Below are positions 7,257 to 64,000 of a stretch of 64,000 bases of DNA, in pieces. Under the pieces are notes generated by a model. It saw only the letters and a list, made by a program, of their open reading frames with translations. It had not been told where the DNA came from and did not search any database. The stretch is from Methanobacteriota archaeon (GTDB taxonomy: Archaea; Halobacteriota; Methanomicrobia; Methanomicrobiales; Methanomicrobiaceae). The stretch spans positions 35,151 through 99,150 of the forward strand of contig JAENYT010000006.1 in NCBI GenBank assembly GCA_016841665.1. Reading direction: 5' to 3'. Position numbers and translations under genes: made by a program. The stretch's first letter is position 1. Each line of letters starts with the position of its first letter.

Positions 7257-7295
7257 GCGTGAACTCGGTACTGTACCTGCAAAGGATTGTTCTTG

Positions 7296-8609: not shown

Positions 8610-9438
8610 CACAATCATCGCCAAAGAGGGGACGGTCATCCAGCACGGGCCGCTGAACGACCGGGTGTACCTGATGAAACTGGGGCCGGGGATTGTGCAG
8701 TTCACCCTCGAGAAGGCGGAGGCGCTGGCCAGAGAACACGGCTATTCCAAGATCTTCGCGAAAGTACCCGCATCGGCGAGAGAGGCATTTGTGGAGCGGG
8801 GGTATACGGTGGAAGCGTTTGTGCCCGGCTTCCTCAATGGGCGGGAAGACGGGTATTTTTTTGCCAAATATCTCGACCCCGGACGGCGCGAACCCGCTGA
8901 TGCGGACATCATCGAGGACGTACTCGCAGCAGCCCTCGCCCGCAGCGACGCGTGCCGGTCATGCTCTCTCCCGCCGGGATTTACCATCCGGCCCGCGGGC
9001 ACCGAAGACGCCCCGGCACTCGCGGCCCTGTACGGATCGGTCTTTGAGACCTACCCCTTTCCCATCCATGATCCCGGCTACATCAGGGAGACGATGCAGT
9101 CGCATATCCACTACTACTGCGCCGTCAGGGAGGGCCGAATCATCGCCGCTTCGTCGGCGGAGACGGACCGAGGCTCGCAGAGCGTGGAGATGACCGATTT
9201 TGCCACACATCCCTCCTACCGGGGCATGGGGCTGTGTGCCGCCCTCCTCGCAACGATGGAGAGGGACATGCAGGATGCGGGCATGCGCACAGCCTACACC
9301 ATCGCCAGGGCGGCCATGTACCCCATCAATATCACCTTTGCCCGTGCAGGCTATGAGTTCGGAGGGACCCTGCGCAACAATACCAACATCTGCGGCGCAT
9401 TCGAGAGCATGAACGTTTGGTACAAAAGGATCAGGTAG
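8599..9438 (+). CDS. ablB: beta-lysine N6-acetyltransferase (GNAT)
   Basis: Overlaps the ablA stop by 11 nt. The C-terminal half is GNAT-like ([26 protein letters not shown]). The position directly downstream of kamA matches the abl operon described in methanogens. Confidence 0.8.
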
Positions 9439-26243: not shown

Positions 26244-28529
26244 TCACGCCGCAAACGACGCCGTCCACCCGGGCCGTGCGGGAGGACTCGCATCGAGCAT
26301 TGCGCGCCACTGCTCATCGGTCAGGCGTTCTGCCATCGGCTGCGTAAATTCGTGATAGGTCATCACCGGCCCGACGCCGCAGAGGATCCGCCCGTCCGGC
26401 AGCCGGTAGGCGACCACGATCATGTCCACGTAGCCCACACCCTCTTCCAGCACCATCCTGCTGTTGGCGTCGGTGTGGACGTCAGCGACGATCGTGGTCT
26501 TCTTCGCCTGATCGTCCACATCCTCGATGACCCCCTCGAGCGCATCGCCGAAATCCCTGATGAATGCGTAGTCGTCTTCGGAGAGCTCCTCGTGTTCGAG
26601 TTCTCGGATTGAGATGTCCTCCAGGCGCTCAAGGACCGCTTCAAGCCGGTCAAGCCTCGCCTTTGATGCGCTGTCCAGCACCTCCATCTCCTCCAGCCCG
26701 GCGTTGGTCATCCGGGTGAGGGCAAGCAGGCGGTGATAGAACTCTGGGACCGGCTCGACATAGCCCACCACCGGTTGTTCTTCGGGCGGCATGGCGGTAG
26801 CCTCCATGGTATAGCTCTGTTTGGCGTAGAGGATGGTGTCGTGGCGCAGCTCCGTCCACGAGGCGAGGGCGCAATTCAGCTGCTTGTCCTGCCATGCCTC
26901 GCCCTGCATGAAAGTGGGATACCCGGGCCCGTAGTCGGCAAGGAGCGGTTTGAGAGAGTAGAGCCAGCTCCAGTAGAGGTTCCTGTTCCAGTCCGCAACC
27001 GTGAAGTTTCCAAACTCCGACTCCAGTTCTGCATACCGGGCGGCATAGAGGGAGTACTCGTCGTTACCCGTCTCGTCGAGGATCGCCTTGGCACGATCCG
27101 ATCCCAGCAGCGCCATCACGTCGAGGCCCATCGGAAATCCCCGTATCGATCCCACCAGAGTGAAGGGCTGCCGGGTGCCCGTATAGGTACCGGTGTACGG
27201 CCCTACCAGGCGGGAGAACAGGTAGGAGTCGGGGATGAACCGCTGGCCCATCAGCCGGAAGCCCTTGGTGCTCTCCAGGCACTGGTCCGCCTGCTCCGGC
27301 GAGTAGGGGGGCGGGATCTGGCAGTTGCCCGTGCCGCCGTAGATCTGCGGTGAACGGTAAGCGGCAAGTTCCGCTTTGAGCGCCGCCACCTCATCCTCGC
27401 TCACCGCTGCCGGATCGAACGTCCCGCCGAACACCTCGCGCATGGCCTCGAGGTACTCGTAGCAGCCAAGGTCGTCGGAGAAGCCCACATAGAAGGCCGT
27501 CACGGTATACATCCTGTCCCAGAGCGCCTGTGTTGCCGGATCCGCGGCGATCGCCGCGGTGATCTGCGCCGCACCGGTGGTCTGGATCCTGGCATCCTCG
27601 GCGGAGACGAGGGCATCGGGAGTGCCCCCTTTCAGGAGGAAGCTCATCCTGCCGTACCACATCATCGCCTTGAAGTAGTTCTTGAGCTTCTCGGAGCGGG
27701 TGTAGTGGCCGCGGGGCACGTACTGGGAGTAGTCCTCGTCGTAGTGGAAGATCGGAGAGGTCGCAAATCCCTCATGGCCCTCGATCAGGGCAAGTTCCGC
27801 CTCCACTTCGTCGCGCACCGCCGCGGGGACGCTGACGCGGTAGCGGTCCGCCTCCTCACGGGAAAAATGCGTCTCCTCGTAACGCCACGCTTCCTCCTCC
27901 GGGATGATCTGGTCGGGCTGGGGGGCGAGCAGACTCAACCCCACGGCGAAAAATGCGGCGTTTCGCCGGGCTGCTTCCTTCGTCTCTCCCTCGGCACTGG
28001 CGTGAACGGCAAGCGACTCCTGGAGAAGATGGTCGCTCACCTGCCAGATGCCGTCATAGAATTCACGCTCCTCGATCCGGCGGAGGGTCTCATCAAACTG
28101 GATGTGGTAGAGGTGGAGGAGCGAGTCGCTCGTGATAAAGATAGGCAACTGGCGCTCCTTCAGGATCTCATAGGGCCTGGTAATGTCCTCCTCCTGCGGG
28201 TTGAAGGGGTTGGCGATCACCACGAACCCGTGCTCTGCAAGCAGGGATTCGGCGTGTGTGTCGAGGGGGACCTTCAAGACAACATCGCCATAGTTCGAGA
28301 TATCTTCCGGCGCAAGCGGGAGATCGTAGGCCGGCACCCGGGCGTCGATCTCGAGCGCCGGGCTTGCATAGTACTGCGCAAAGCTCGCTGCCGTGGTGTT
28401 TGCCCCGGAGAGGTTCACCGCCTCCACGGTGAGGGGCTGGAGATGTGCCGGCTGCTCCGTCTGCACGCAGGCAGCAGTGATGACCGCGGCGCAGACCGCG
28501 GCCAGAAAGAGTATGGTCCGTGCATTCAT
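26244..28529 (-). CDS. large secreted protein, DUF3160-like
   Basis: Signal peptide MNARTILFLAAVCAAVITAAC (the Cys suggests a possible lipid anchor). 761 aa. The block QLPIFITSDSLLHLYHIQFDETLRRIEEREFY matches my recollection of DUF3160. Family call is moderate. Confidence 0.65.
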   Translation of the reverse strand: MNARTILFLAAVCAAVITAACVQTEQPAHLQPLTVEAVNLSGANTTAASFAQYYASPALEIDARVPAYDLPLAPEDISNYGDVVLKVPLDTHAESLLAEHGFVVIANPFNPQEEDITRPYEILKERQLPIFITSDSLLHLYHIQFDETLRRIEEREFYDGIWQVSDHLLQESLAVHASAEGETKEAARRNAAFFAVGLSLLAPQPDQIIPEEEAWRYEETHFSREEADRYRVSVPAAVRDEVEAELALIEGHEGFATSPIFHYDEDYSQYVPRGHYTRSEKLKNYFKAMMWYGRMSFLLKGGTPDALVSAEDARIQTTGAAQITAAIAADPATQALWDRMYTVTAFYVGFSDDLGCYEYLEAMREVFGGTFDPAAVSEDEVAALKAELAAYRSPQIYGGTGNCQIPPPYSPEQADQCLESTKGFRLMGQRFIPDSYLFSRLVGPYTGTYTGTRQPFTLVGSIRGFPMGLDVMALLGSDRAKAILDETGNDEYSLYAARYAELESEFGNFTVADWNRNLYWSWLYSLKPLLADYGPGYPTFMQGEAWQDKQLNCALASWTELRHDTILYAKQSYTMEATAMPPEEQPVVGYVEPVPEFYHRLLALTRMTNAGLEEMEVLDSASKARLDRLEAVLERLEDISIRELEHEELSEDDYAFIRDFGDALEGVIEDVDDQAKKTTIVADVHTDANSRMVLEEGVGYVDMIVVAYRLPDGRILCGVGPVMTYHEFTQPMAERLTDEQWRAMLDASPPARPGWTASFAA

Positions 28530-28671
28530 TCTGTCACCAGTGAACCATGGGAAGTTAAGCAAAAATACCTATGGTACACTTCGAAAATCTTCGAAGTATC
28601 CCGGCGGGCATTAAACAACTCCAATTGATAAAAAGGATTTTATAATCTACCATATATTTTGGTGAGATACT

Positions 28672-28965: not shown

Positions 28966-31611
28966 ATGGGTGTCGCATCAGCTTTCGGTTCGATTAATCG
29001 GCACACAGTACTCGATCACCTTATCCTCGTGATCATTTTCTTCACCATCCTGTTCGCCGAAGTCACCATCTATATCCTCTCCGGAGGGGCAAGTTTCCTC
29101 CTCGCCCACCTGCTCTACTTCCCTGTTCTCTTTGTCGCCTATGAGTATCCCCGGCGCGGCATTCTGCTCTCCACCCTGATCGGGTTTTGCTATATCATCA
29201 TCTCCTACACCGTGCTGTACCCGGCAATGCTCGAGCTCATCCCGGCCACCATGCAGTTCTATGCCTACGTAAGCATCGCAGTGGCGGCATCATACATCTC
29301 CGGCGAGCTGAAGATGAACGAGCTGAAATACCGCAACATATTTGCCAACAGCGGGATCGGCATCTGCCTGGTGAACCTGAGAACCCGTACCATTGTGGAG
29401 GCAAACCCCCAGTGCCCCCTTTTCCTGAAACAGGACACGTCCTGTCATCGCATTGATGAAATCTGGCAGGAAGGCAGCGACTGTGAGGAGTTCTTTGCGC
29501 TGCTTGAGGTCCGCGGCACTATCCGTGACTACGAATTGCGCACCGTGCAGGCCGACGGCACCCACCAGGATCTTCTCATCTCCGCGGGGGTTCTGCCCAA
29601 TGATCTGGCCGTATTCGCCCTTACCGATATCACGGGGCGGCAGCAAGAACTTGATTCACTGCGCAGGAGCGAGCAGAGGTTCCGTGAGCTGACCGATTCC
29701 CTGCCCCACCCGATTTTCGAGATCAACAGCGCATTGCAGGTGACCTATGCCAACCGGACTGCGCTCGAAATCTACCTGTTTACCCCCGAAGATCTCCGTC
29801 AGGGGCTTGATGTGGAGGAGACGGTTGCCCCGGAGGGGCGGGATCAGGCCCATCTCTACCTGGAGAATGCCCTGCAGGGGGGTACTCCCGAACCCGTTGA
29901 GTACCTGGCATGCCGGAAGGACGGCACAGTCTTTCCGGCCCTCATATTCATCCGGCCTATCATTTGCGACCACCACATCACCGGCATCCGGGGAAGCATC
30001 ATCGATATCACCGACCGCAAACAGGCAGAGGAGCGGCAGGCGGAGAACATCAGGAACCTGGAGTTCCTCTCCGGGACGGCCACGGACTTCGTGGATTTTC
30101 CCTCCGACCTTGATCTCTACCAGTATATCTGCGATCGCCTCGCCGAGATCGTGCCCGGTGCCATCACGTTCATCTCCGAGGTGGATAGCTCGCACGCAAT
30201 GGTAACGGTGCGGGCACGCTGCCTTTCCGACACACAACATGAAATCTTCACCAGGGACCTTGGATGTGATCTGATTGGCCTCTCCTTCTCCCTGCCTCAT
30301 GAGGCAGCAGAGATTATGAAAATGGGCACGCTGGTGGAGATACCTGATGGGTTGAACGGTGTCACCTTCGGGCAGTATCCTGAAGATGAATGCGAGCGCG
30401 TCGAGAAAGAATGCGCAATCGTCAGGATCTTCGGGACAGGGATTTCCTGGCAGGATCATCTCTTCGGCTGTGCACTCATCATGCTTCCAGAAGGCTGTGA
30501 ATTGGAAAACCGGGACCTCGTCGAGGCATTTCTCCACCAGGCGACGGTCGCCCTTCGGCGAAAATTCACCGAGGACGACCTTCATGAGAGCGAAGCAACG
30601 TACCGTACCCTCTTCGAGAGTTCGAACGACGCCATCTTTCTTCTCAGCGATACGATCATCGACTGCAACGAACAGCTCAGCCGCCTGTTCGGCCACCCAA
30701 AAGAGGAGATCATTGGGCGGAGGCCGGAAGAATTTTCCCCAGAAAAACAGCCCGACGGGAGAGATTCTGCCGATGCTGCACGGGAAATGATAGAGGCAGC
30801 GCTCTCGGGAGAATCGCTGTTTTCCGCATGGCAGCACCGGCACCGGGACGGGAACCTCATCTACACCGAGATCCTGCTCAAGCGGATCATGCTCCACGGT
30901 CAGGCGGTGCTGCTCGCCACTGTCCATGACGTGACCGAACGGGTGCGGTCAGAGGAGGCACTCCGTGATGCGAACAGGAAACTCGGCCTGCTCTCCAGCA
31001 TCACCCGCCATGACATCCTCAACCAGGTGACTGCGGCCCGTCTCTACTACGAAATGCTCGACGATCCCTCGTTCGGGCTCTGGGAGCGCGATCGCGCCCT
31101 CTCCCAGATCAGAGCTGCCATCTACAATATCCAGGATATTGTCGAATTCGCGAGCATCTATGAGAATATAGGGGTTAAAGAACCCCGGTGGCAGAGGGTG
31201 GGATATACCGCCCTGCAGGCGGCGGGAGCGTTCGATATGCAGCAGATCGCCATTCATGTCGATGCCGGCAACCTTGAGATCTACGCCGATCCCCTGCTGG
31301 AGAAAGTCTTTTTCAATCTCTTCGACAATGCCGTGCGGCACGCTGATGCGGTGTCCGCGATTCAGGTCACCTTCCGCACGAAGGGAAGCGATGCGATCGT
31401 TTCCGTGGAGGATGACGGGCCGGGTATTCCTGCCGGCCAGAAGGAAGAGATTTTCAAGCAGGGTGTGGGGAAAAATACCGGAAAAGGGTTGTTCCTGGGC
31501 AGGGAGATTCTTGCCATCACCGGAATCACCATCCGGGAGACCGGCGGGGAAGAGGAGGGGGCGCGGTTTGAAATCCATATCCCTGAGGAAAAATGGCGGA
31601 TCGGCGAATAA
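28966..31611 (+). CDS. membrane-associated PAS/GAF sensor histidine kinase
   Basis: About 4 N-terminal TM helices, then PAS repeats. H-box LGLLSSITRHDILNQ. ATPase blocks NLFDNAVRHA, VEDDGPGIP and GKGLFLGREI. The C-terminus is near-identical in style to the other kinases here. Confidence 0.85.
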   Translation: MGVASAFGSINRHTVLDHLILVIIFFTILFAEVTIYILSGGASFLLAHLLYFPVLFVAYEYPRRGILLSTLIGFCYIIISYTVLYPAMLELIPATMQFYAYVSIAVAASYISGELKMNELKYRNIFANSGIGICLVNLRTRTIVEANPQCPLFLKQDTSCHRIDEIWQEGSDCEEFFALLEVRGTIRDYELRTVQADGTHQDLLISAGVLPNDLAVFALTDITGRQQELDSLRRSEQRFRELTDSLPHPIFEINSALQVTYANRTALEIYLFTPEDLRQGLDVEETVAPEGRDQAHLYLENALQGGTPEPVEYLACRKDGTVFPALIFIRPIICDHHITGIRGSIIDITDRKQAEERQAENIRNLEFLSGTATDFVDFPSDLDLYQYICDRLAEIVPGAITFISEVDSSHAMVTVRARCLSDTQHEIFTRDLGCDLIGLSFSLPHEAAEIMKMGTLVEIPDGLNGVTFGQYPEDECERVEKECAIVRIFGTGISWQDHLFGCALIMLPEGCELENRDLVEAFLHQATVALRRKFTEDDLHESEATYRTLFESSNDAIFLLSDTIIDCNEQLSRLFGHPKEEIIGRRPEEFSPEKQPDGRDSADAAREMIEAALSGESLFSAWQHRHRDGNLIYTEILLKRIMLHGQAVLLATVHDVTERVRSEEALRDANRKLGLLSSITRHDILNQVTAARLYYEMLDDPSFGLWERDRALSQIRAAIYNIQDIVEFASIYENIGVKEPRWQRVGYTALQAAGAFDMQQIAIHVDAGNLEIYADPLLEKVFFNLFDNAVRHADAVSAIQVTFRTKGSDAIVSVEDDGPGIPAGQKEEIFKQGVGKNTGKGLFLGREILAITGITIRETGGEEEGARFEIHIPEEKWRIGE

Positions 31612-34918: not shown

Positions 34919-37900
34919 ATGTATACCCTACTTCTCGTGGATGACGAACCGATCCTGCTCAAAGCGGCGAAGAAGTTCCTCGAAAAACATGCAGATTTCA
35001 GATGTGACACATGTACGTCAGGATCGGAAGCGCTCGAACGGATCCAGGCTGCATCCTACGATGCCGTGGTCAGCGACTACGAGATGCCGGTGATGAACGG
35101 CATTGATCTTTTGAAAACGATCAGGGAACGGCAACCTGATCTTCCGTTCATCCTGTTCACGGGACGGGGGAGGGAGGAGGTGGCAATCGAGGCGCTCAAC
35201 AGCGGTGCAGACTTCTACGTCCAGAAGGGAGGGGATATCAAGGCCCAGTTCGCCGATCTGTCTCACAAGATCCGTCATGCCGCAGAGAAGGCGCAGAGCG
35301 CCAGGCGGCTCCGGGACCTCAACCAGGCGCTCGAAGGGGAAAAAGAGCGCCTCCGGGTGACCCTGCGATCGATCGGCGACGGCGTTATCGTCACCGATAC
35401 CGAAGGGGTGGTGGTCTCGCTCAACCGCGTGGCCGAGGAGCTCTGCGGCTGGAAGAGCAAGGCGGCGGCAGGACACCCCCTCACCGACGTGTTTCACATC
35501 ATCAACGAAAAGACCGGGGCGGTGTGCACCAACCCGGTGCAGAAGGTGCTGGAGAGCGGGCATATCGTCGGCCTCGCCAACCACACCGCCCTCATCAGCC
35601 GCGATGGCACCAGAAGAGCGATCGCCGACAGCGCCGCACCCATCCGCGATGCCGGGGATGCGGTCATCGGGGTGGTGCTCGTCTTCCGCGATGTGACTGC
35701 GGAGAAGGAGGCGGAACGCACACACCTCCGGCTGTCGGCTGTCGCCGGATCCTCCGTCGATGCGATCTATACCGTCACGCCCGAGGGCATCATTGCCACC
35801 TGGAACAGGGGGGCGGAGCAAATTTACGGCTATACCGCTGAAGAGGTCGTCGGCCGGCACGTCTCGGTGGTGGCGCCTCCCGATCTTGGCAATGAATCCT
35901 CCGAACTGATGGCGCGGGTGAAGGCTGGAGACCTGGTCGAGCAATACGAAACATACCGCTACCGGAAGGGCGGAAAGAAAATCCACATAACCCTGGCCGT
36001 GTCCCCGCTTGTCGATGCCGAAGGGGAGTTCCTTGGTTTTTCCGGCATTTCACGGGATATCACGGAGAGGAAACGGTATGAGCAGAGGATCGAGCACCTC
36101 AACCGCGTGCTCCTCTCCATCCGCAACATGAACCAGATTATCGTGGAAGAAACCGATACGGAGCGGCTGCTCCAGAGGATCTGCGATTCGCTCACCGAAA
36201 GCGGGGGGTATCACCATGCGTGGATCGCACTCTACGATGATACAGGGCGCCTTGCGGTGCGTGCCGGGTCCGGGCTCGAAGAGCGGCTGCATGTCCTCAA
36301 CGACCAGTTCTGCGGCGGTCGGATTGCCGGATGCGCCAGAAAAGCGCTTGATTCACCGTTGAGCATCATCACCAGAGATCCCGCATCCTCCTGCACCGAT
36401 TGCCCGCTGGTGCCGATGTATGAAGGACGGGGAGCAATGACCGTCCGCATCAAGCGCGGGGATACCATCTACGGCCTGATCTCCCTCTCGATGCCCCGCG
36501 CGCTGATCGATGATGAGGAGGAGCTAAACCTGTTCCAGGAGGTTGCTGCGGACATCGGCATTGCCCTGCACGGCATCGGCCTGGAACAGGAGCGGGTAGC
36601 AGCGGTACGGGCGCTCGCAGAGGAAAAAGAGCGCCTCCGCGTAACCCTGCGATCGATCGGCGACGGCGTTATCGTCACCGATACCGAAGGTCTGGTGGTC
36701 TTTCTCAACCCCGTTGCCGAGGAACTCTGCGGCTGGAAGAGCAGGGAGGCGGCAGGACACCCGCTCACCGATGTGTTCCACATCATCAACGAAAAAACCC
36801 GCAGGGTCTGCACCAACCCGGTGCAGAAGGTGCTGGAGAGCGGGCATATCGTCGGCCTCGCCAACCACACCGCCCTCATCAGCCGCAGCGGCGAAGAGCG
36901 GATCATTGCCGACAGCGCCGCACCCATCCACGACGCCGGGGATGCGGTCATCGGGGTGGTGCTCGTCTTCCGCGACGTGACCGCAGAGAAGCGGGCCGAG
37001 ATGGAGCGTCTCCGGCTGACCGCCATTGCCGAATCCTCCGAGAATGCCATCTTCAACGCATCGCCCGACGGCATTATTCTCGGCTGGAATGCGGGTGCGG
37101 AGCGGATGACCGGGTATGCGGCCGCGGAGATCATCGGGTCGCACATCTCCACGCTGGCACCGCCGGGTAGAAAGAAGGAATCCAGGAAGAACGTCGAGCG
37201 GATGAGGAATGATAGGTGCGTCCTCCAGCTGGAGACGGTGCAGGCGAGAAAGGACGGGAGTCTCATCGATATCGCCGCCACCATCCTGCCCCTCCTCGAT
37301 GAAGACGGCGATTATGTGGGCTTCTCGGGGATCATTCGCGACATCACCGGGAAAAAAGAGGCAGAGAAGCGGATGGAGCATATCAACCGTGTGCTTTTCG
37401 CTATCCGCAATGTCAACCAGCTCATCACCCAGGTCAGGGATGAGGAAACCCTGCTCAAAAAGGTGTGCGACACGCTCATCGAGACGCGAGGCTTTTACAG
37501 TGCCTGGATCGCCCTTTTCGGCGAAGCGGGCACCTTCACCAGGGCTGTGGAAGCGGGCCTGGGTGACGGGTTCCTGCCCATGGCCGAACGTCTCTCCCGG
37601 GGCGAATTGACGCGGTGCGGGCGCAGGGCGCTTGAGAATCCGGGCGTCATCGTCACGAAGAACCCTGCGTCCTCCTGCCGGGACTGCCCGGTTGCCTCCC
37701 GCTCCCGCGGCAGGGCTGCTATGACCAGACGGCTCGAATGGGAAGACCGGGTGTACGGTCTGCTCTCCCTCTCCATCCCCCCCGAGATGGCAGACGACGA
37801 GGAGGAACAGGCGCTGTTCGAGGAGGTTGCCTCGGACATCGGGTTCGCCCTGCACACCTACGAGATCGATCGGGATCGCACACGGGCGGAAGAGGCGCTC

Positions 37901-38545
37901 TTTGAGGCGAACACCAAACTGAACCTGCTCTCCAGCATCACCCGCCACGATCTCATCAACCAGACGACCGGGATCTCGGCGATGATGCTCCTGCTCGCGG
38001 AAGATCTCGAGGGGAACCCGGCCGCGCAGGAGTACTGCGAGTATGTGCAGGAGGCCCTCGACACCATCAACCGGCAGATCTCCTTCACCCGCGACTACGA
38101 GAACATGGGGGTGAACCGGCCGGAGTGGCAGCAGGTTGCGGCGGTGATCGAGCGGGCGGCCGAAACCACGCTCGCCAATGGCATATCCCTCGAGAACCAA
38201 ACCGGATCTCTTGAAATCTACGCCGATCCCATGGTGGAGCGGGTCTTTTTCAACCTGCTGGACAATGCCGCCCGCCACGGCAATCAGGTCAGCGTAATAC
38301 GGGTACTGTCGGCCACGGAAGACGGTCAGTGCAGGATCACCGTGGAAGACGACGGAGACGGCATCCCCGCATCCGAGAAAGAGACAATCTTCGAGAGGGG
38401 TTTCGGTAAAAATACAGGATACGGCCTGTTTTTGGCACGCGCCATTCTCGACATCACCGGGATATCGATCCGCGAGACCGGCGAGGAGGGGAAGGGCGCC
38501 CGGTTCGAGATCGTGGTCCCCAACGGCCAGTGGCGTGCAGCGTAA
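34919..38545 (+). CDS. hybrid sensor: receiver + 2 x (PAS-PAS-GAF) + histidine kinase
   Basis: Receiver: LLLVDDEP...DAVVSDYEMPVMNG...LFTGRGRE...GADFYVQKG. H-box LNLLSSITRHDLINQ. ATPase blocks NLLDNAARHG, VEDDGDGIP and GYGLFLARAI. Confidence 0.9.
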   Translation: MYTLLLVDDEPILLKAAKKFLEKHADFRCDTCTSGSEALERIQAASYDAVVSDYEMPVMNGIDLLKTIRERQPDLPFILFTGRGREEVAIEALNSGADFYVQKGGDIKAQFADLSHKIRHAAEKAQSARRLRDLNQALEGEKERLRVTLRSIGDGVIVTDTEGVVVSLNRVAEELCGWKSKAAAGHPLTDVFHIINEKTGAVCTNPVQKVLESGHIVGLANHTALISRDGTRRAIADSAAPIRDAGDAVIGVVLVFRDVTAEKEAERTHLRLSAVAGSSVDAIYTVTPEGIIATWNRGAEQIYGYTAEEVVGRHVSVVAPPDLGNESSELMARVKAGDLVEQYETYRYRKGGKKIHITLAVSPLVDAEGEFLGFSGISRDITERKRYEQRIEHLNRVLLSIRNMNQIIVEETDTERLLQRICDSLTESGGYHHAWIALYDDTGRLAVRAGSGLEERLHVLNDQFCGGRIAGCARKALDSPLSIITRDPASSCTDCPLVPMYEGRGAMTVRIKRGDTIYGLISLSMPRALIDDEEELNLFQEVAADIGIALHGIGLEQERVAAVRALAEEKERLRVTLRSIGDGVIVTDTEGLVVFLNPVAEELCGWKSREAAGHPLTDVFHIINEKTRRVCTNPVQKVLESGHIVGLANHTALISRSGEERIIADSAAPIHDAGDAVIGVVLVFRDVTAEKRAEMERLRLTAIAESSENAIFNASPDGIILGWNAGAERMTGYAAAEIIGSHISTLAPPGRKKESRKNVERMRNDRCVLQLETVQARKDGSLIDIAATILPLLDEDGDYVGFSGIIRDITGKKEAEKRMEHINRVLFAIRNVNQLITQVRDEETLLKKVCDTLIETRGFYSAWIALFGEAGTFTRAVEAGLGDGFLPMAERLSRGELTRCGRRALENPGVIVTKNPASSCRDCPVASRSRGRAAMTRRLEWEDRVYGLLSLSIPPEMADDEEEQALFEEVASDIGFALHTYEIDRDRTRAEEALFEANTKLNLLSSITRHDLINQTTGISAMMLLLAEDLEGNPAAQEYCEYVQEALDTINRQISFTRDYENMGVNRPEWQQVAAVIERAAETTLANGISLENQTGSLEIYADPMVERVFFNLLDNAARHGNQVSVIRVLSATEDGQCRITVEDDGDGIPASEKETIFERGFGKNTGYGLFLARAILDITGISIRETGEEGKGARFEIVVPNGQWRAA
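35339..37906 (+). repeat. in-frame tandem duplication, 2 x 1284 nt (428 codons), of a PAS-PAS-GAF module
   Basis: GAAAAAGAGCGCCTCCG...CGATCGATCGGCGACGGCGTTATCGTCACCGATACCGAAGG occurs at 35339 and again at 36623. The protein segments EKERLRVTLRSIGDGVIVTDTEG...VLVFRDVTAEK are near-identical. The following PAS and GAF parts align collinearly but are much more diverged. Confidence 0.85.
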
Positions 38546-39562: not shown

Positions 39563-41128
39563 TCATTCCTCTATAACCGGAGCAAGGGTGAACCGTATGG
39601 CGAGACCTTCATCAGGCCGGCCGGGTATACGATCCTCCGCCCATATTCTGCCGCAGTAGCGCTCAACAAGCATGCGGGCGATTATCAGGCCAAGATTCCT
39701 TTTTGCGTCTTCATGCGAGAGAGCACGGGGGTGTGCGAACAGCTCCGGTTTATCTTCATCGGGAATGCCCGGGCCTGAGTCCTCCACCGAAACCCGGAGC
39801 ATCCCATCCTTGTCTTCTCCTACGTCGATGCTGATGTGCACATCTTTCTTTCTGGACAGTATCCTGTTCCTGATAATATGGGCAAACAGTTCCGCAAGGA
39901 GATCGTCTGCAAGCACGGTCAGGCCCGTATTTTGGACCGAGATGGTGGCGTAGGGAAATCGCTCCCTCATTGATCCGAATATGCCGTCCAGTTCGACTTC
40001 ATCAAATTCATCCGGTGAATCGGTCAATCTGCGGATGGTGGAGATATCATTCGTGATCTCGACCACTTCACGGATATCTTCATTCAGTTTTTCCGCATAG
40101 CACCCCGCGGCGCCATGCAGCAGTTCGGTGACGATTCTGGTGTGCTCCATCATGGAGTGCTCCAGGGATTTCATGTCCTGCCCAAGAAGATCGAAATAGC
40201 ATTGCTCCTCCAGATAGGCCTCCTCGAGCTGTTCCTGCAGCATTCCCCTGAGAATCGTACCGCCGATCTCCCTGCCGATCGATTCCAGGATTGTTTTCTC
40301 CCTCTCCGAGAAATGATGCCCTGTCCTCTGTCCGATGTAGAGCGCTCCCACCACGATTGAATCCGAAACGAGGGGAATCCCGGCGAAAGACAACGCATCG
40401 ACCTCTTCAAGGATACGGGTATCGAGCATCCCCGGGGGGCATTCCGGCAGGTTTTCTACATACCGGGGCTGGCATGCACAGAATACGAGGTTGTACGGCC
40501 AGTCACGAATGAATATCGAGGATTTTTCTTCGATAAATGATGCCGGGACGCCATAATTGGCCTTCATCGTTGCCGTTCGCCCGTCAGGCGATTTCAGGTA
40601 GATCCACCCCATATCACAATCCAGCAGATTGAGGGTGATTTTCAGGATCATCTCCAGCATTTCACCAAGAATGAGGGATGAATTCGCCACGCGGATGATC
40701 TCGTTGATAATTGAGAGCTGGTTATGCTGTTCGATAATTTCCTTCTGCGCCCTCCGCTGCTCCACCGCAAGCCTGATCTTATACGAAAGATCGGCAAATT
40801 GCGCTTCGGTATCCGTGCCCTTCCGGATATAGTAGTCAATACCGTTGTCCAGGGCCTCAATAACCACCTCTTCCCGCCCCTTCCCGGTGAAAAGAATGAA
40901 GGGGAAGGTGGGATCGAGGGCGCGAACCCCCTTGAGAAACTCGATCCCATCCATCCCGGGGATTTTGTAGTCGGAAACGACGGCATCATACTGCGCCGAT
41001 GCTAATGTTTCCAGCGCTTCTACGGCTGATTCAACCGTATCGACCTCGAACTCACCAGTCTTTTCGAGAAAAATTTTAGATACATCCAAGATCGATGGTT
41101 CGTCATCTACTATCAGAACACGAATCAT
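39563..41128 (-). CDS. hybrid sensor: receiver + GAF + histidine kinase
   Basis: Receiver: IRVLIVDDEPSIL...DAVVSDYKIPGMDG...LFTGKGRE...GIDYYIRKG. The central region is GAF-like. C-terminal ATPase blocks are VEDSGPGIPDEDK and LGLIIARMLVE. Confidence 0.85.
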   Translation of the reverse strand: MIRVLIVDDEPSILDVSKIFLEKTGEFEVDTVESAVEALETLASAQYDAVVSDYKIPGMDGIEFLKGVRALDPTFPFILFTGKGREEVVIEALDNGIDYYIRKGTDTEAQFADLSYKIRLAVEQRRAQKEIIEQHNQLSIINEIIRVANSSLILGEMLEMILKITLNLLDCDMGWIYLKSPDGRTATMKANYGVPASFIEEKSSIFIRDWPYNLVFCACQPRYVENLPECPPGMLDTRILEEVDALSFAGIPLVSDSIVVGALYIGQRTGHHFSEREKTILESIGREIGGTILRGMLQEQLEEAYLEEQCYFDLLGQDMKSLEHSMMEHTRIVTELLHGAAGCYAEKLNEDIREVVEITNDISTIRRLTDSPDEFDEVELDGIFGSMRERFPYATISVQNTGLTVLADDLLAELFAHIIRNRILSRKKDVHISIDVGEDKDGMLRVSVEDSGPGIPDEDKPELFAHPRALSHEDAKRNLGLIIARMLVERYCGRIWAEDRIPGRPDEGLAIRFTLAPVIEE

Positions 41129-53646: not shown

Positions 53647-54222
53647 TCAGCCCAGGTCCCCGCGGATCAACCTGTCGATATCCGCCCGCTCCGCCGTCTG
53701 CAGCAGTTCAAACTCAATGCTCACCGATGCCGTCTCCCTGCCTGCCTTCTCCATGGCACGCTCGATGATCCGGGCCGCCTGCGCGAGCCCACCGTTCTTC
53801 CAGTGCTCCTTGATGACCGCATTGGTGATTTTTTTGGCTATTTCACTGCCGAATACCACAAACGCGCTCCCCTCGCCCTGCTGGGTAACGGTGCCCTCCC
53901 CGCCCTCGAACTCCACGATAGCATACCTCCCGGCGGAGGCATAGAGCCGACGTTTGCGCACCCTGCCTCCCTCGCTCGAGGTCACTTCTCCGACCAGCAC
54001 TCTGTCGCGTATCGTCACCTTGCACCGGTCATCGTAGACAAACAACCGGACGCCAAGCGCTTCCGCACGACGATGCAGCTCCTCGTCGACGACGATACGG
54101 CCCGAATAGAGCTCCCGCTCCAGGCGTTCAACGCTCGCATCGTCCCCGAGAAAAAAGACCGATCTCCTGTCGCCGGCCATCACGGCGCCATTCCTTCCCA
54201 CAAAGGCAATCACCAGGCTCAT
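53647..54222 (-). CDS. hypothetical protein, DUF2121-like (archaeal)
   Basis: From the ATG at 54222: MSLVIAFVGRNGAVMAGDRRSV... resembles the N-terminus of archaeal DUF2121 proteins as I recall them. 191 aa. Confidence 0.5.
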   Translation of the reverse strand: MSLVIAFVGRNGAVMAGDRRSVFFLGDDASVERLERELYSGRIVVDEELHRRAEALGVRLFVYDDRCKVTIRDRVLVGEVTSSEGGRVRKRRLYASAGRYAIVEFEGGEGTVTQQGEGSAFVVFGSEIAKKITNAVIKEHWKNGGLAQAARIIERAMEKAGRETASVSIEFELLQTAERADIDRLIRGDLG

Positions 54223-54349
54223 ATCGCATTTCTCCTGTTGCAGTGCGGTGCATGTCATGCAACCGCAATGACGTCGATTACGCGTTTCTCTCCATTCACG
54301 TGGGCGGGATCATCGATATCGCTGTCGGGTGGGGCATCGGTCCCGCGGC

Positions 54350-56957: not shown

Positions 56958-57311
56958 TCAGGGTCTGCCTCCGATGCTCTCCACATCGAGGTCGACTTCG
57001 ATGCCACCCTGGACAGCAAACACGAGATTGTAGACGATGGCTGCAATGGCACCGCCGACGAACCCCCCGATGGCCCAGACGATCATGGCAAGGATAATGC
57101 CGCCGATGCCTGCGCCGATTGCGGCGATAATTCCAAGGTCAAATGCCGGAACGACCGCAATAACCCCGAGAATCCCGGCGACGAGCCCATACAGCGCACT
57201 CAGGACTGCAAAGAACAGTGCTACCGACCACACTCCAAGATGCTTAACCCGTACTTTCTCTTTCGTCAAACGCTTCACCCCCTCAGGGACGCTACGACAT
57301 AGAATAGCCAA
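56958..57311 (-). CDS. small Gly/Ala/Ile-rich membrane protein
   Basis: Three hydrophobic helices (VWSVALFFAVLSALYGLVAGILGVIAVV, IIAAIGAGIGGIILAMIVWAIGGFVGGAIAAIVY). The track start is a TTG, so the true start is uncertain. Confidence 0.45.
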   Translation of the reverse strand: MAILCRSVPEGVKRLTKEKVRVKHLGVWSVALFFAVLSALYGLVAGILGVIAVVPAFDLGIIAAIGAGIGGIILAMIVWAIGGFVGGAIAAIVYNLVFAVQGGIEVDLDVESIGGRP

Positions 57312-57988
57312 AAAGATATTAAAATATTGCTATTGTTATAAAAATCCCCGATCAGCAGGCCACGTGCCGCAAAGGAGCCATTCCATACCTTCCTGAGAGA
57401 ATTGGGGTATCATTGCCCCGTTTGTCTCCACCCCCTATCGGGTGCCCTTCAGGGATGCGCGGCCTGCGGGATTAATCAGCCATCACCGTATGAACATACC
57501 ATACATGCCGCAACGAAGGCAAATACCGATAAGAATGGAGTATATGCCTCATTTTCCACCGGAGCATATGAAATGTCATGAACAATTCCGGCAAATGTTG
57601 ATGTAGCCGGAAATAAAAATATATGAATATGAGTGCGGACACCACCACGTTCGCCTACCATTTCATCATGGGGGCAATCATCACCCAGGTCCTTCTTCTG
57701 GCAATTTCATCACAATGCGGACCGCTGGGCACCGCCGGGACGATCCAGGACCCCGGCGCCGTCTGGGAATGCATAGCCGGCCAGCTGACCGCCACCCGTC
57801 TTCTCCTGTTCGGGCTGTTCGACTGCGTCGGAGGGATCGGGTTCAGCGCCCTTGTGAATGGAAGGATGAACCGTCTGTTCACGCATTCCTGAACATTTCT
57901 GTCCCGGTTCCGGCCAGCATAACCCTTTTTCTGCACACCTGCAAATAGATCAGGGCACATTTTCCACCGCATCGCAGGCACTCATTCC

Positions 57989-59457: not shown

Positions 59458-59808
59458 ATGGCTGCCTATCGCAAAGGCGACGTGATACAGGCGAACGTCC
59501 GTATCGACGGAAGAGGAGAGGCAAAGGTCCGGCCGGTGGTGGTGATCGAGCAGGAGGGGGAGGAAACGCTCCGCGTCCTTCCCATGACCTCCAGTCTCCC
59601 TGCCGACACTCCCCACATCCCCGTCGATCTCCTCGATTTCGTCGAGGGAGGACTCGATATGCACAAGATCAGCTACGTACTTACCGCCAGCGAGTGCAGG
59701 GTGCATACCTCGGAGGTCAGGGGCAGGAAGGGCAGGCTTGCACGGGAGCCGATGGAAACGATCGTCGCCGCGATCCCCACCGGGCCGAAACGATCCGGGA
59801 CTGGATGA
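59458..59808 (+). CDS. PemK/MazF-like toxin-fold protein (solitary)
   Basis: [14 protein letters not shown]...[13 protein letters not shown]...LRVLPMTSS...HIPVDL...[20 protein letters not shown] follows the PemK/MazF SH3-like pattern (GD.v, RP.vV, .P.TS). A TATA-like ATTTATCC lies about 30 nt upstream, so the transcript may be leaderless. Confidence 0.55.
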
Positions 59809-60292: not shown

Positions 60293-60388
60293 AGGGCCTG
60301 TCCACGCATCCCGGCGTGATGCGTCGGTGTTTGCTAGAATGAGGGGAACGAAAGATCACTCCCCAAGTATTATTTTTTAAAAAAGAGT

Positions 60389-61201
60389 TCAGATATTGGT
60401 GATGGTAATATTGTACTGTTTGACGATCACCTGATCGATGCCCTCGATAACGTAATAATCCCCCTGTATGTCCAAGCCACCCTGTATGATTGAAGATCCG
60501 GTGAAGTAGTTATGCCATGCCTGCGAATAATCATTTGATCCATCCGGCGTGTATTTCACCCTTAAATCCGTATTCCCCACCGAGGAAGAGAGTTCATGTA
60601 CTTTCGGCTCTTCCAGCCGGCTCATCTGGAGGTTGCCGATGCCGTTGAGGGAAAGATCGCGGTTGTTTTTGGTTTTGAGAGCGGTGAGGAATATTACCAC
60701 CGTTTTCTTATGCGTTATCTCATTATCATCATAGAACCACCGCGGTTCAGCGAGCATGACCGATCCAGACGCGTCCTGCTGCCGTCTTACCACCGCACCG
60801 TTTTCAAATGAGATCACCGCCGTTCCCTGGTCGGAGACATAGCGCAGTTCGCCGGGGGAAAAGTGCAGATCGTTCCAGGTTCCGTTGTCCAACCATTCGA
60901 ACTCAAAATCCTGGTTTGTGTCCGCCGTTTCATACACGCTCATCGCCCCGCCGGAGACCCGCAGCGCGGTGTCCTTGTAGGGCACGTTGCTGTAGCTGAG
61001 CAGTTTCATGTCGTTCTGGATCGTGATCATCGTCTGCTCCATGGTGCGTTCGTCCGCCCCGATCTGGTGCTGGAGCAGCATCGGGTACCCGTAGAGGGAG
61101 ACAAGGCCAATGCCGGCGATCACGATAGAGAAGATGATGATAAACCCGATCGATTCGGAAACTGCGCATTCATCCATTCGAAAATTCCCGTGTTTGCTCA
61201 T
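60389..61201 (-). CDS. archaeal type IV pilin-like protein (class III signal peptide)
   Basis: The N-terminus MSKHGNFRMDECAVSESIGFIIIFSIVIAGIGLVSLYG resembles the (D/R)-A-V-S-E-x-x-G-F pilin/archaellin-type N-terminal domain. Last gene of an overlapping operon. Confidence 0.6.
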   Translation of the reverse strand: MSKHGNFRMDECAVSESIGFIIIFSIVIAGIGLVSLYGYPMLLQHQIGADERTMEQTMITIQNDMKLLSYSNVPYKDTALRVSGGAMSVYETADTNQDFEFEWLDNGTWNDLHFSPGELRYVSDQGTAVISFENGAVVRRQQDASGSVMLAEPRWFYDDNEITHKKTVVIFLTALKTKNNRDLSLNGIGNLQMSRLEEPKVHELSSSVGNTDLRVKYTPDGSNDYSQAWHNYFTGSSIIQGGLDIQGDYYVIEGIDQVIVKQYNITITNI

Positions 61202-61674
61202 GAATATCCACTCGAGTTATAGGAGATCATGTTCAGTCCTTTTCCGCTCGTCTCTCCGGTCACCGGCCGGGTCGCTCCGATACCTCCCAGTGCAATCGTA
61301 CTGCGGAGGTTGTAGTCGGTCACCATGATCCGCTGTGCCGCGCCCGTTTTGCCCGGTTCGAGCTGCACCCAGTAGTCCTGGTTCGCCACATCGTTGGGAA
61401 GGTCGAACTTCGTGGTGATCGTCCCGTTTCCGGGGGCGATTACGTAGAGATCCACGATGCGCACGCTAACCCCGTTGCCGATGTCAGTGAACTTGTGGTA
61501 CTTGAGGGTGTCCGAGGGGCCCTGGATGAAGGCGGCGTTGACCGCGAACATGATGATGACCAGGAGCACCACCAGTACGCCGGAGACGGAGAGGTACTCG
61601 AGCAGGCTGGAAAGCCCCTCTTCCTCATGGAATCGGTTGTGATAACGGTTGTGATAACAGGAACGTCTCATCAT
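61198..61674 (-). CDS. type IV pilin-like protein
   Basis: ...HEEEGLSSLLEYLSVSGVLVVLLVIIMFAVNAAF has a charged leader, a G, then a hydrophobic helix of about 22 residues. 4-nt overlap with the downstream gene. The start is uncertain because of a 50-nt overlap with the upstream gene. Confidence 0.5.
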   Translation of the reverse strand: MMRRSCYHNRYHNRFHEEEGLSSLLEYLSVSGVLVVLLVIIMFAVNAAFIQGPSDTLKYHKFTDIGNGVSVRIVDLYVIAPGNGTITTKFDLPNDVANQDYWVQLEPGKTGAAQRIMVTDYNLRSTIALGGIGATRPVTGETSGKGLNMISYNSSGYS

Positions 61675-62038
61675 ATTCGGTCACCCCGTTGTTGTAATGG
61701 ATAATGATCCGGGTATAGCTATAGTACGAGTCATTAACCGCCCCCGGCGTGATGGAGCACTCAACCACGGCGTTTTTTCGGGCCATGGAGATGACTTTGA
61801 GGTCATCCATCAAATTTGTCCTTTTAGCGGTAGTGTAAGTTTCCCAATCCTTGGCGATATCAATGATTTCACTGCGGGTATCCTGGATCTCGGTCTTGGG
61901 AAATTCCAGCACCGCCTCCGATGTGGTCTGCCCCACCACCGTGGACTGGGTGATGATGAGAGCCAAAAAGAAGATGCCGACACAGACCATGAAACCCATC
62001 AGCACGATCCACTGGCCCTCGTCGTTCAGCCTCTCCAT
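61625..62038 (-). CDS. type IV pilin-like protein
   Basis: MERLNDEGQWIVLMGFMVCVGIFFLALIITQS fits the class III leader pattern (D/E-G then Q plus a hydrophobic helix). Confidence 0.5.
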   Translation of the reverse strand: MERLNDEGQWIVLMGFMVCVGIFFLALIITQSTVVGQTTSEAVLEFPKTEIQDTRSEIIDIAKDWETYTTAKRTNLMDDLKVISMARKNAVVECSITPGAVNDSYYSYTRIIIHYNNGVTEYDETFLLSQPLSQPIP

Positions 62039-62562
62039 AGCAACACCTCCACGAGTAAAAGCTGAGGATCACGCTGGTCGGCCGCTGGAATCCCCGGAAT
62101 ATTCGCAGTGTCCGCATCCACCGATACCCAACGCGTTACCCGAACCGCCGGCTCCCTGCTCACCAAGTCGCTCCTTATCGAAGAGGAGAGGGGATAACTT
62201 GCCACCTCGCCCGAGTCAGTGCGGTAATAGACCGAAGCGTTGTACTGGAGATCATTAACGCAGGTATCTGTCGACTCCGTTATCCTTTTGAGAGATTCAG
62301 TAAAATTGGCATAGAACCACGCGTGAGAATAGCTTTGACCCAGAATGATATTCTCAAGCTTGCTCGTATCACCGTAGTAATCGGGCGTGTCCATCATGGC
62401 CAGTGCATCGCTGCCCAGCTGTTCGAGCTGCATATCCGCGATGTGCACGTCGCCGGGCGTATACACCGTCGTGGTCCCAAGCACAAGGTAGGCGGTGATC
62501 AGCATGAGCACGCCGGCGGCGAATCCTTCGAGGGTATACATCTGCGCCTGATCGTTTACCAT
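62026..62562 (-). CDS. type IV pilin-like protein
   Basis: MVNDQAQMYTLEGFAAGVLMLITAYLVLGTT. The Q-x-YTLEG-hydrophobic motif resembles pilin-like families of haloarchaeal and methanomicrobial Tad-like loci as I recall them. Confidence 0.55.
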   Translation of the reverse strand: MVNDQAQMYTLEGFAAGVLMLITAYLVLGTTTVYTPGDVHIADMQLEQLGSDALAMMDTPDYYGDTSKLENIILGQSYSHAWFYANFTESLKRITESTDTCVNDLQYNASVYYRTDSGEVASYPLSSSIRSDLVSREPAVRVTRWVSVDADTANIPGIPAADQRDPQLLLVEVLLWRG

Positions 62563-63638
62563 ACGGACACCTCCAGGACACCCGGCGTGAGGGTGGGCAG
62601 GTTCATCGGGCTGTTGGCGGACGTATCATACGTATAGTAGATTGTTCCGTCCATATAATCCTTCGATGTATTCCACTGACCTTCTTCGTAGTAATACCTG
62701 AGACTCATATTCACCATAAGCACGGTATCGGTCTCATAGGCAAATGGCAGAGGCGGGTTAAGTTTCAGATATATGTCATCCACATTCTTAATTGAGAAAT
62801 TATAATCCAGGGGCTTGGCGGTGCCGTTGACTTTATAGATATAACTCTCGTTGTCAAAATCATCATAGGCGAAGGGAATCTCACCCAAGACGCCTTCTTT
62901 GTAAAACCTGATGTTGTTGATAAAAACATCAAGAACGTCGGTAGTGTTCAGATTGGATTTGAAATTGTGTATGGTAACTTCCATCGGCTCTGTTCTCATA
63001 TCCATGCGATATTCGTCGCCAATCGATTTGTCGTAGAGCTCGGTGTAATTCAGGAGGATAGTGAAGTAAGTATTGGTTACAGATGTATTCTCCGAAACGG
63101 TTTTGTGATAGATGGAGTTATTACAATCGACGTCTGCGGAATGCAGTCCCTTCACCTTGACCAGGCGGCGGATGTAGCCGTAACTTCGTTCGGGGACCGG
63201 ATCGCCCAGTGGAGTATGATCTACTGGATCACCCTCAATTCTCAGCGCGATGTTGTAGGCATAGGGTGCATAGGGCATATCGGCAAAGATTACCTTCTGC
63301 CCGTATTCCTCTTCGGTGAAGAAGGAAGTATTGAAAAATCGTTCAATTTTCGACCGGGAGAGCACATTGGGGGTATTGTCGGAGACCGCGAGGCCCAGGC
63401 GGGCGATATCGTCTTTGTGGTACTCGTCCTCGAGCTCCCAGGGCGGGTTGGCGGGCCAGCCGGGGTCTTCCACGAGGATGACCGCCGTGCGGTAGGCGAC
63501 CGCATCATAATCGATATTCTGGCTTTCCAGGCCGATCATGATGCCCGGAACCATGTTGATCACCATGATGAGGGCGAGAATAAAGATGGTAAACCCGGCA
63601 AGAAAATCCACGGAAAGCATTCCCCGGTCATTCATCAC
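62556..63638 (-). CDS. large type IV pilin-like protein
   Basis: MMNDRGMLSVDFLAGFTIFILALIMVINMV fits [KRDE]-G followed by a hydrophobic run. 360 aa with many N-x-S/T sequons. Confidence 0.6.
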   Translation of the reverse strand: MMNDRGMLSVDFLAGFTIFILALIMVINMVPGIMIGLESQNIDYDAVAYRTAVILVEDPGWPANPPWELEDEYHKDDIARLGLAVSDNTPNVLSRSKIERFFNTSFFTEEEYGQKVIFADMPYAPYAYNIALRIEGDPVDHTPLGDPVPERSYGYIRRLVKVKGLHSADVDCNNSIYHKTVSENTSVTNTYFTILLNYTELYDKSIGDEYRMDMRTEPMEVTIHNFKSNLNTTDVLDVFINNIRFYKEGVLGEIPFAYDDFDNESYIYKVNGTAKPLDYNFSIKNVDDIYLKLNPPLPFAYETDTVLMVNMSLRYYYEEGQWNTSKDYMDGTIYYTYDTSANSPMNLPTLTPGVLEVSVW

Positions 63639-64000
63639 TCTGATACGATCAACTCCCCTGAATCAGCATTGAAGGCAAGATCACTCAATCGGTTCCCATT
63701 CTTGGCGTAGACCCTGTACACACCATCGATCAGCTCGAGGCTGATCTCCGTAGCATTGGAGATCTCGAGCTTTTCCTGTATGGTATCGCCCTGCATCGCG
63801 AAGAGATCGGTCGGGCTGAGAATCGTCTCCGTATCGATGGTGGAAGTGGTATAATGCTCCGGCCACGAGAGCGATCTCCACGTGAACCTGTTGTAGACAA
63901 GGATTGCAGTCGTATTGTCCTGCGTGGTGACGCCGAGGATCCAGGTGGATGCATCCCCGGAGAGATCCATACCATCGCCGTTGATCCGGTGGATGGTCAT
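63635..64000 (-). CDS. C-terminal part of a further gene of the same operon (truncated by the window edge)
   Basis: The frame is open to base 64000. The stop overlaps the next gene's start by 4 nt. The N-terminus is not visible, so pilin status is unknown. Confidence 0.4.
   Translation of the reverse strand: MTIHRINGDGMDLSGDASTWILGVTTQDNTTAILVYNRFTWRSLSWPEHYTTSTIDTETILSPTDLFAMQGDTIQEKLEISNATEISLELIDGVYRVYAKNGNRLSDLAFNADSGELIVSE

Follow-up and report, generated by a model that had tools for sequence, protein, structure and literature searches.

In the 2016 arCOG-based census of Makarova et al. (PMC4858521) a second type of euryarchaeal clade 2 type IV pilus system was distinguished, typified by the PilB4 locus of Haloferax volcanii (Fig. 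4B of that study), and the label 'system 2' comes from the MacSyFinder-based preprint of Sivabalasarma and Albers (2026). According to the census, the pilin sets of Euryarchaeota and the modules of ATPase and TadC have separate evolutionary histories; the sets are exchangeable, may function in trans and are in some cases encoded at a distance from the module. Its Table S4 lists a pilin-only row for A. fulgidus (AF0751-0756) and a pilin row beside TadC and the ATPase for A. profundus, its supplement places clade 2 ATPases at other loci in Methanoculleus genomes, and a PilA-like predicted major pilin is assigned to this kind of set. Moreover, cross-complementation between PilB-PilC pairs and pilin sets was shown in Haloferax (PMC6491452); for PilB4 the literature holds expression data only. 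Here we analyze a stretch of 64,000 nucleotides (nt) from an archaeon of the Methanomicrobiaceae (assembly GCA_016841665.1, contig JAENYT010000006.1, positions 35,151 to 99,150 of the forward strand), referred to below as the window. An operon at its right end, g1-g6, probably constitutes a self-contained six-gene unit that encodes the pilin set of a euryarchaeal clade 2/system 2 type IV pilus, the motor of which would be encoded elsewhere. The genes, numbered along transcription, and the stretch that follows them are:

63635 to beyond 64000, minus strand: g1, first gene of the operon, of which the 3' part lies in the window (121 of 190 codons)
62556-63638, minus strand: g2, 360 amino acids (aa), DUF7287 pilin-like, GTG start or ATG one codon later
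62026-62562, minus strand: g3, 178 aa, DUF7288 pilin-like
61625-62038, minus strand: g4, 137 aa, small pilin-like, DUF7261-like
61198-61674, minus strand: g5, 158 aa, small pilin-like, DUF7266-like
60389-61201, minus strand: g6, 270 aa, DUF7289 pilin-like, last gene of the operon
60373-60388, minus strand: oligo-T/A-rich stretch (T6/A6) directly 3' of the g6 stop

The products of g2, g3 and g6 score above the Pfam gathering cut-offs for DUF7287 (E=9.3e-10, 39.7 bits versus a cut-off of 27, residues 3-105), DUF7288 (E=8.9e-14, 52.7 bits, cut-off 27) and DUF7289 (E=4e-17, 63 bits, cut-off 27), respectively. The products of g4 and g5 fall below the cut-offs of their families and are named '-like' because the relationship is only transitive, via proteins of Methanocella and of a metagenomic contig (L084) and via gene position. 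More specifically, a profile of 53 g4 orthologues matches a Methanocella protein of 151 aa at 9e-22, which in turn matches DUF7261 at 4.7e-4, and g4 occupies the DUF7261 position of the PilB-linked locus on L084. The orthologue profile of g5 matches the DUF7266 protein of Methanocella at 5e-31 and that of L084 at 5.8e-4. NCBIfam contains no match for any of the six proteins. An initial annotation, made from the letters of the stretch alone, had stated that none of the products looks like an archaellin; indeed, no archaellin or Fla family match was found among the six in Pfam or NCBIfam, and the flanks contain no such genes. Orthologues were taken from 80 Methanomicrobiales genome loci, with 52-76 sequences aligned per gene. 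For g6, 936 homologues were collected, the nearest of which all belong to the Methanomicrobiales, and an exhaustive profile search yielded 1081 related representative clusters.

Two distant branches of these families were followed. The metagenomic contig L084/L085 carries genes for PilB (PilB3_N, T2SSE and PilB3_C domains, 972 aa) and for a T2SSF protein (681 aa), together with members of DUF7287, DUF7288, DUF7261, DUF7266 and DUF7289 that stand in the same order as in the window; a divergent gene with DUF7289 and DUF7305 comes next. The contig was called halophile-like, or haloarchaeal-type, on the basis of its composition and the PilB3_N and PilB3_C domains, and a homology search that started from its DUF7289 protein returned five proteins only. 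Since the five families follow directly after PilB and PilC in this order, the window most likely holds the clade 2/system 2 pilin set, separated from the motor. The operon in Methanocella encodes a Big_1/VWA giant of 1280 aa, a protein of 244 aa, the above 151-aa protein with its weak DUF7261 match, a DUF7266 and a DUF7289 protein. It is adjoined by a convergent DUF7287-DUF7288 pair, with a gene for HMG-CoA reductase beside it, and there is no motor at the locus. The profiles of g2-g6 match the Methanocella DUF7287, DUF7288, weak DUF7261, DUF7266 and DUF7289 proteins one-to-one, at E-values of 3.5e-10 to 5e-31 (Z=1e5). In fact, the profiles of the Methanomicrobiales orthologues match only their positional counterparts in the Methanocella and L084 loci.

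The N-termini of the five proteins share a common plan, consisting of [N/D][D/E]x[G/A] followed by an almost invariant mature end and a hydrophobic helix. The residue at position -1 is G or A in 100% of the 52-76 orthologues of each of the genes g2-g6, and the hydrophobic window of about 20 residues that follows has a mean Kyte-Doolittle value of 1.9-2.9. The N-termini quoted in the initial annotation, with a charged leader that ends in G or A and a hydrophobic helix behind it, were right, and they are conserved across the orthologues. With a slash between positions -1 and +1 they read:

g2: MMNDRG/MLSVDFLAGF... in the window, conserved mature end xLSxDFLAGF
g3: MVNDQA/QMYTLEGFAAGVLML... in the window, conserved ND[ES]G/QLYTIEG in 60 orthologues
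g4: MERLNDEG/QWIVLMGF... in the window, conserved mature end QWIVLMGF
g5: …HEEEG/LSSLLEYLSVSGVLVV... in the window, conserved mature end VSxLxEY
g6: …MDECA/VSESIGFIIIF... in the window, conserved mature end VSEAIGF

These sequence features identify g2-g6 as type IV pilin-like proteins of the archaeal kind, with a signal of class III type. A check with FlaFind, as the initial annotation had proposed, gave a mixed outcome. We used our own re-implementation of the FlaFind 1.2 motif, [KRDE][GA][ALIFQMVED][ILMVTAS] (PMC4307647), which has a background rate of 12 in 963 open reading frames (ORFs). The strict motif fits at the shared site in g2 (RGML) and g5 (EGLS). For g3, class III cleavage could occur at either of two sites, NDQA/QMY at the position common to the other four genes and LEG/FAAG, of which only the latter (EGFA) fits. 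All orthologues of g4 fail on the W at +2, and for g6 the motif fits 49 of the 76 orthologues, the window's own g6 being among those that miss it.

With respect to structure, the AF2 model of g6 (18 homologues, mean pLDDT 85.8) has a helix over residues 11-70, followed by a beta-rich domain with 17 strands. The predicted fold is thus that of a pilin 'lollipop', a 60-residue N-terminal helix with a beta domain. Foldseek retrieved no meaningful match to this model from the PDB (best E-value 2.7e-3, TM at most 0.15, mostly coronavirus spikes), and sequence and profile searches of the PDB retrieved no relative of g6 or g5. This is in line with the statement in the initial annotation that loci of this kind are computationally catalogued and experimentally undefined: they are known only from census work, and the PDB offers no relative by sequence or by fold. 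The C-terminal domain of g2 (about 250 aa) is variable and AT-rich.

The organization of the operon is compact. An ORF map of the window reproduced the six overlapping minus-strand ORFs of the initial annotation at the same coordinates and with the same overlaps, which are 4 nt for g1/g2, 7 for g2/g3, 13 for g3/g4, 50 for g4/g5 and 4 for g5/g6. The same pattern of junctions is seen when genes are called independently on L001, the closest genome, where they measure 4, 7, 13 and 38 nt, followed by a gap of 20 nt before g6; the 7-nt overlap of g2 and g3 is kept there. Shine-Dalgarno-like motifs are located 6-7 nt 5' of the starts of g3, g4 and g5, each within the preceding gene: GGAGGTG at 6 nt before the starts of g3 (an ATG) and g4, and GGGGTGA before that of g5. 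At the other end the sequence reads TGA ACTCTTTTTTAAAAAATAATAC from the g6 stop onwards. The T6/A6 stretch is where transcription of the operon may end, as oligo-T stretches generally serve as terminators in archaea. The operon consists of exactly six genes, five that are pilin-like and one that encodes a secreted or lipid-anchored partner.

That partner is g1, which the window truncates; the ATG at 64000 codes for a Met inside the protein. Its full-length counterpart P0279 (190 aa, 98% identical to the visible part) starts with MDYRSFLVLIIITLCFICGC (also given as MDYRSFLVLIIITLCFICGCITAP) and has an ordinary signal peptide that ends in a CGC lipobox-like motif. This type of N-terminus recurs in most of the 52 aligned orthologues, the Methanoregula versions having a plain hydrophobic anchor. 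A class III-type N-terminus, with a charged leader and G or A at -1, is not seen in g1. The protein has no match in Pfam (E-values up to 10) or in NCBIfam, and its AF2 model, built with seven close homologues, is of low confidence (pLDDT 48.7). A hint of two helix-plus-three-strand repeats was dismissed, as neither an internal profile comparison nor Pfam at E-values up to 10 supported it. Judging from sequence, g1 is a secreted or membrane-anchored lipoprotein-like protein specific to the Methanomicrobiales and not a pilin. The earlier description of six pilin-like genes consequently holds for g2-g6 and fails for g1, given its signal peptide and lipobox-like motif.

The sequence beyond the window could be read from contig L088, which is 98.3% identical to the last 478 nt of the window. 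By alignment to this contig the start of g1 is placed at about 64207, some 207 nt past the window end. A non-coding stretch of 145 nt follows upstream, and beyond it hisG and a DUF1015 gene are oriented in the same way. The non-coding stretch (L088:2435-2578, corresponding to about 64208-64352, beyond the window) contains a TATA-like TTTATATGG, some 38 nt upstream of the g1 ATG, and the region between hisG and g1 is the probable promoter of the operon. In L001 (77-78% protein identity) the gene order is thiolase, Trm5, HMG-CoA reductase, acetyltransferase, DUF1015, hisG, g1-g6, eIF-1A, PemK and MatE, the last three of which also follow the operon in the window. Moreover, the order g1-g6 with hisG and DUF1015 upstream is found in Methanoculleus, Methanogenium, Methanoplanus, Methanofollis and Methanoregula, that is, in those of the 80 loci (about 50) whose contigs include the genes on that side. 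Neither an ATPase nor a platform gene adjoins the operon in any Methanomicrobiales locus examined (ORF map of the 80 loci, some 50 of which show the upstream side).

A separate observation concerns the PemK gene in this flank. At 59458-59808 on the plus strand, between MatE and eIF-1A, lies a gene for a PemK/MazF-like toxin of 116 aa with a weak PemK_toxin match, syntenic in L001 and with no obvious antitoxin ORF beside it.

The operon is visibly richer in AT than its flanks, as the initial annotation had remarked. Its guanine-plus-cytosine (GC) content is 0.523 versus 0.589 in the rest of the window, and the lowest value for a 500-nt window (0.446) is reached in the 3' two-thirds of g2. The deficit extends to all codon positions, the values at the second and third position being 0.33-0.43 and 0.63-0.77 in the operon versus about 0.47 and about 0.8 in the neighbouring genes. 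The same offset towards lower GC is seen in 43 of 49 related loci. Together with the order-wide synteny, this indicates that the composition is a property of the extracellular proteins encoded by the operon and not a trace of recent horizontal transfer, which is thereby ruled out as its cause. For all six genes the ratio of nonsynonymous to synonymous substitution (dN/dS) relative to L001 lies between 0.15 and 0.30 (0.24 for g1), and therefore g1-g6 are real genes under selection.

Various relatives of the pilin-like genes are connected to large adhesin-like modules. The g2 orthologue at L029:4910-8680 is a fusion of 1256 aa in which DUF7287 is combined with PKD, DUF2341 and Laminin_G_3 domains, two of each, and at L086:1005-3623 and L086:4606-6879 we found fusions of DUF7266 with PKD and Laminin_G and of DUF7289 with VWA. 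In addition, secreted Big_1/Invasin_D3 plus VWA proteins of 727-1280 aa adjoin the pilin operon in the Methanoregulaceae, and one heads the operon in Methanocella (together L052:3423-6752, L078:3382-6636, L081:10859-14290, L050:11537-13720, L059:11496-14063 and L082:4420-8262). The window contains no equivalent of these proteins.

Taken together, the way in which the operon would act can be outlined as follows. Transcription would start a short distance past the window end, from a promoter in the interval that separates hisG from g1, and translation would be coupled via the overlapping stops and starts and the internal Shine-Dalgarno sites. The five pilin-like proteins would insert in the membrane and be cut after the conserved G or A by a prepilin (class III signal) peptidase whose gene lies elsewhere, after which they would be assembled by a PilB ATPase and a PilC/TadC platform that are also encoded elsewhere in the genome. 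The near-equimolar, coupled layout and the presence of five different families would suit a complex for the tip or for priming, so that the set may form a multi-pilin complex for initiation, tip formation or priming, with g5 possibly as the main (bulk) subunit. The latter is the most plausible candidate because of its DUF7266 position and because the DUF7266 protein of L084 scores 24.3 bits with Pilin_N (PF07790), just under the cut-off of 25.2. As adhesin modules are found on or beside the pilins of relatives, an adhesion pilus is favoured, and the structure may serve in the adhesion to surfaces or cells.

Other explanations should be weighed against this reading. The initial annotation had expected the secretion ATPase, the platform protein and the major pilin just beyond 64000, which would make the operon the distal end of a complete pilus locus with PilB/TadA, PilC/TadC and a prepilin peptidase. 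The direction of transcription, from right to left, and the truncation of the first gene by the window are compatible with that expectation, and in the haloarchaeal-type L084 the same pilin set is indeed immediately preceded by PilB and PilC; nevertheless, the presence of hisG and DUF1015 at this position in L088, in L001 and in those related Methanomicrobiales loci that extend to it contradicts it and makes such a complete locus very improbable. Even less credible is that the operon would be a decaying, non-functional remnant of a pilus locus that has lost its motor. The lack of a nearby ATPase or platform gene and the GC content below that of the flanks would fit decay, but the six genes are intact with dN/dS values that indicate constraint, their order, overlaps and N-terminal motifs are kept across the families of the Methanomicrobiales and into Methanocella, and the GC offset is common to the great majority of the loci. 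The initial annotation had also held that a lack of adjacent ATPase and platform genes would speak against a filament system altogether. The locus indeed lacks them, yet we consider that view too strict, since homologous pilin sets adjoin PilB and PilC in another lineage.

A different role for the products of g1-g6 can also be envisaged, although it is rather unlikely. They could form a short, stoichiometric, membrane-anchored complex without a dedicated motor, such as a pseudopilus, a bindosome-like platform or a shared tip or priming complex. The motor is absent in cis across the whole order, the tight overlaps and internal Shine-Dalgarno sites point to synthesis in nearly equal amounts, as would be unusual for the major subunit of a filament, the conserved lipoprotein-like g1 is translationally coupled to g2, and the large adhesin domains are attached to single members of the set. 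By analogy, and as a matter of general knowledge, the five-member set resembles the minor-pilin and pseudopilin sets of bacteria. However, homologous sets elsewhere share an operon with PilB and PilC, and Makarova et al. predict a PilA-like major pilin in such sets, g5 being at the corresponding position. The permanent uncoupling from the motor across the Methanomicrobiales, together with the g1 partner, leaves room for a structure of its own, and there is a small chance that the detached five-pilin module and its lipoprotein-like partner build a membrane-anchored complex of fixed stoichiometry, be it a pseudopilus, a tip, or a docking platform for large VWA/Ig adhesins. If so, the complex would operate without a dedicated ATPase or be shared among several PilB/PilC machines, a usage that is undescribed for archaeal pilins.

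Several observations weigh against the preferred reading of a clade 2/system 2 pilin set with its motor in trans. The link to PilB and PilC comes from one metagenomic lineage (L084/L085) plus the literature, and the partnership with a motor and peptidase in trans is an assumption, as the 40 ORFs scanned across the 64-kilobase (kb) window include no T2SSE, T2SSF or A24 peptidase (Peptidase_A24). With regard to the individual families, g4 scores 13.4 bits with DUF7261 (E=0.09; cut-off 27) and g5 scores 19.1 bits with DUF7266 (E=1.1e-3; cut-off 27.6), and at the shared site the window's g3 (Q at -2), g4 (W at +2) and g6 (C at -2) are near-misses to the strict FlaFind motif. The profile-profile similarity among the families is weak, with probabilities of 24% for g5-g6, 18% for g2-g4 and 15% for g3-g4, and common ancestry of the five families is consequently not demonstrated beyond the shared N-terminal pattern. 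The correspondence to arCOG06117, 04652, 07777/06552, 03926 and 02911 is suggested only by the order of the genes listed in Table S4 of PMC4858521 and by their sizes. Finally, the literature contains no filament, signal-peptide processing or adhesion phenotype for any member of these families.

Elsewhere in the window some features were recorded that are separate from the operon:

7287-9438, plus strand: lysine-2,3-aminomutase (radical SAM and LAM_C), then an overlapping GNAT acetyltransferase gene; presumably a pair of the ablA/ablB type, for the osmolyte N-epsilon-acetyl-beta-lysine
22895-25594, 28966-31611 and 34919-38545, plus strand, and 39563-41128, minus strand: sensors at an unusually high density, namely four large multi-PAS/GAF histidine kinases in a span of 19 kb, of which three have a receiver domain at the N-terminus
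26244-28562, minus strand: DUF3160 protein of 772 aa (E=4e-218) with a signal-like N-terminus
53647-54258, minus strand: MJ0548-type connectase
56958-57311, minus strand, and 57250-57750: AT-rich patch (GC 0.49) with a glycine-rich small membrane protein of 117 aa (…GIIAAIGAGIGGIILAMIVWAIGGFVGGAIAAIVYNL…) that has no annotation

Part of what has been described was already known, namely the Pfam DUFs, the type of system in the 2016 arCOG-based census and the 2026 preprint, and the existence of pilin sets in trans to a motor. Specific to this locus are the order-wide detachment from the motor, the fixed location on the hisG side and the addition of g1. The pilin families concerned are widespread in methanogens and haloarchaea, and for none of them has a structure been solved or a filament or phenotype demonstrated. 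With its strong conservation, fixed genomic position, presumed translational coupling and variable adhesin modules, the unit of the Methanomicrobiales would be a convenient model, both for the organization of multi-pilin sets and for the way in which a pilin set finds a motor that is encoded elsewhere. For annotation purposes, such operons provide no basis for inferring an adjacent secretion ATPase.

In bacteria, sets of four to five low-abundance pilin-like proteins are encoded together, like FimU-PilVWXE with PilY1 of the type IVa pili (T4aP) and GspH-I-J-K of the type II secretion systems (T2SS). These minor-pilin sets act together with a large adhesin of the VWA type, and there are modular pilins in which a VWA or lectin module has been joined to the pilin N-terminus. 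The set in the window is comparable to them in layout only: there is no detectable relationship in sequence or fold, the signal motif is of the archaeal type and the context of an outer-membrane secretin is absent. The Epd locus of Methanococcus maripaludis (system 1) likewise specifies a methanogen pilus with several minor pilins, each of which is required for piliation. That locus is an 11-gene cluster that includes genes for an ATPase, for two platform proteins and for a peptidase dedicated to the system, and its pilin families differ from those of the window. The PilA1-6 pilins of H. volcanii, which depend on PilB3-PilC3, share with the window set the class III signals and the position in trans to the motor, and have a role in adhesion. 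They are paralogous major pilins (arCOG02416) encoded by scattered single genes, whereas a single coupled operon in the window encodes five families that look unrelated, none of which reaches similarity to Pilin_N/PilA on its own.

The closest counterpart remains the clade 2/system 2 pilus. The operon lies away from ATPase and TadC and is fixed beside hisG in the Methanomicrobiales; a complete locus, with a PilB-type ATPase and TadC/PilC beside the pilins, was not found in L088, L001 or the approximately 50 Methanomicrobiales loci. Furthermore, it has gained g1, which the Methanocella and haloarchaeal-type loci do not have. What the window shares with this system is the combination of several different pilin genes in one operon, the large adhesin-like neighbours that are frequent in both, and five Pfam families in the very order of the PilB-PilC-linked L084.

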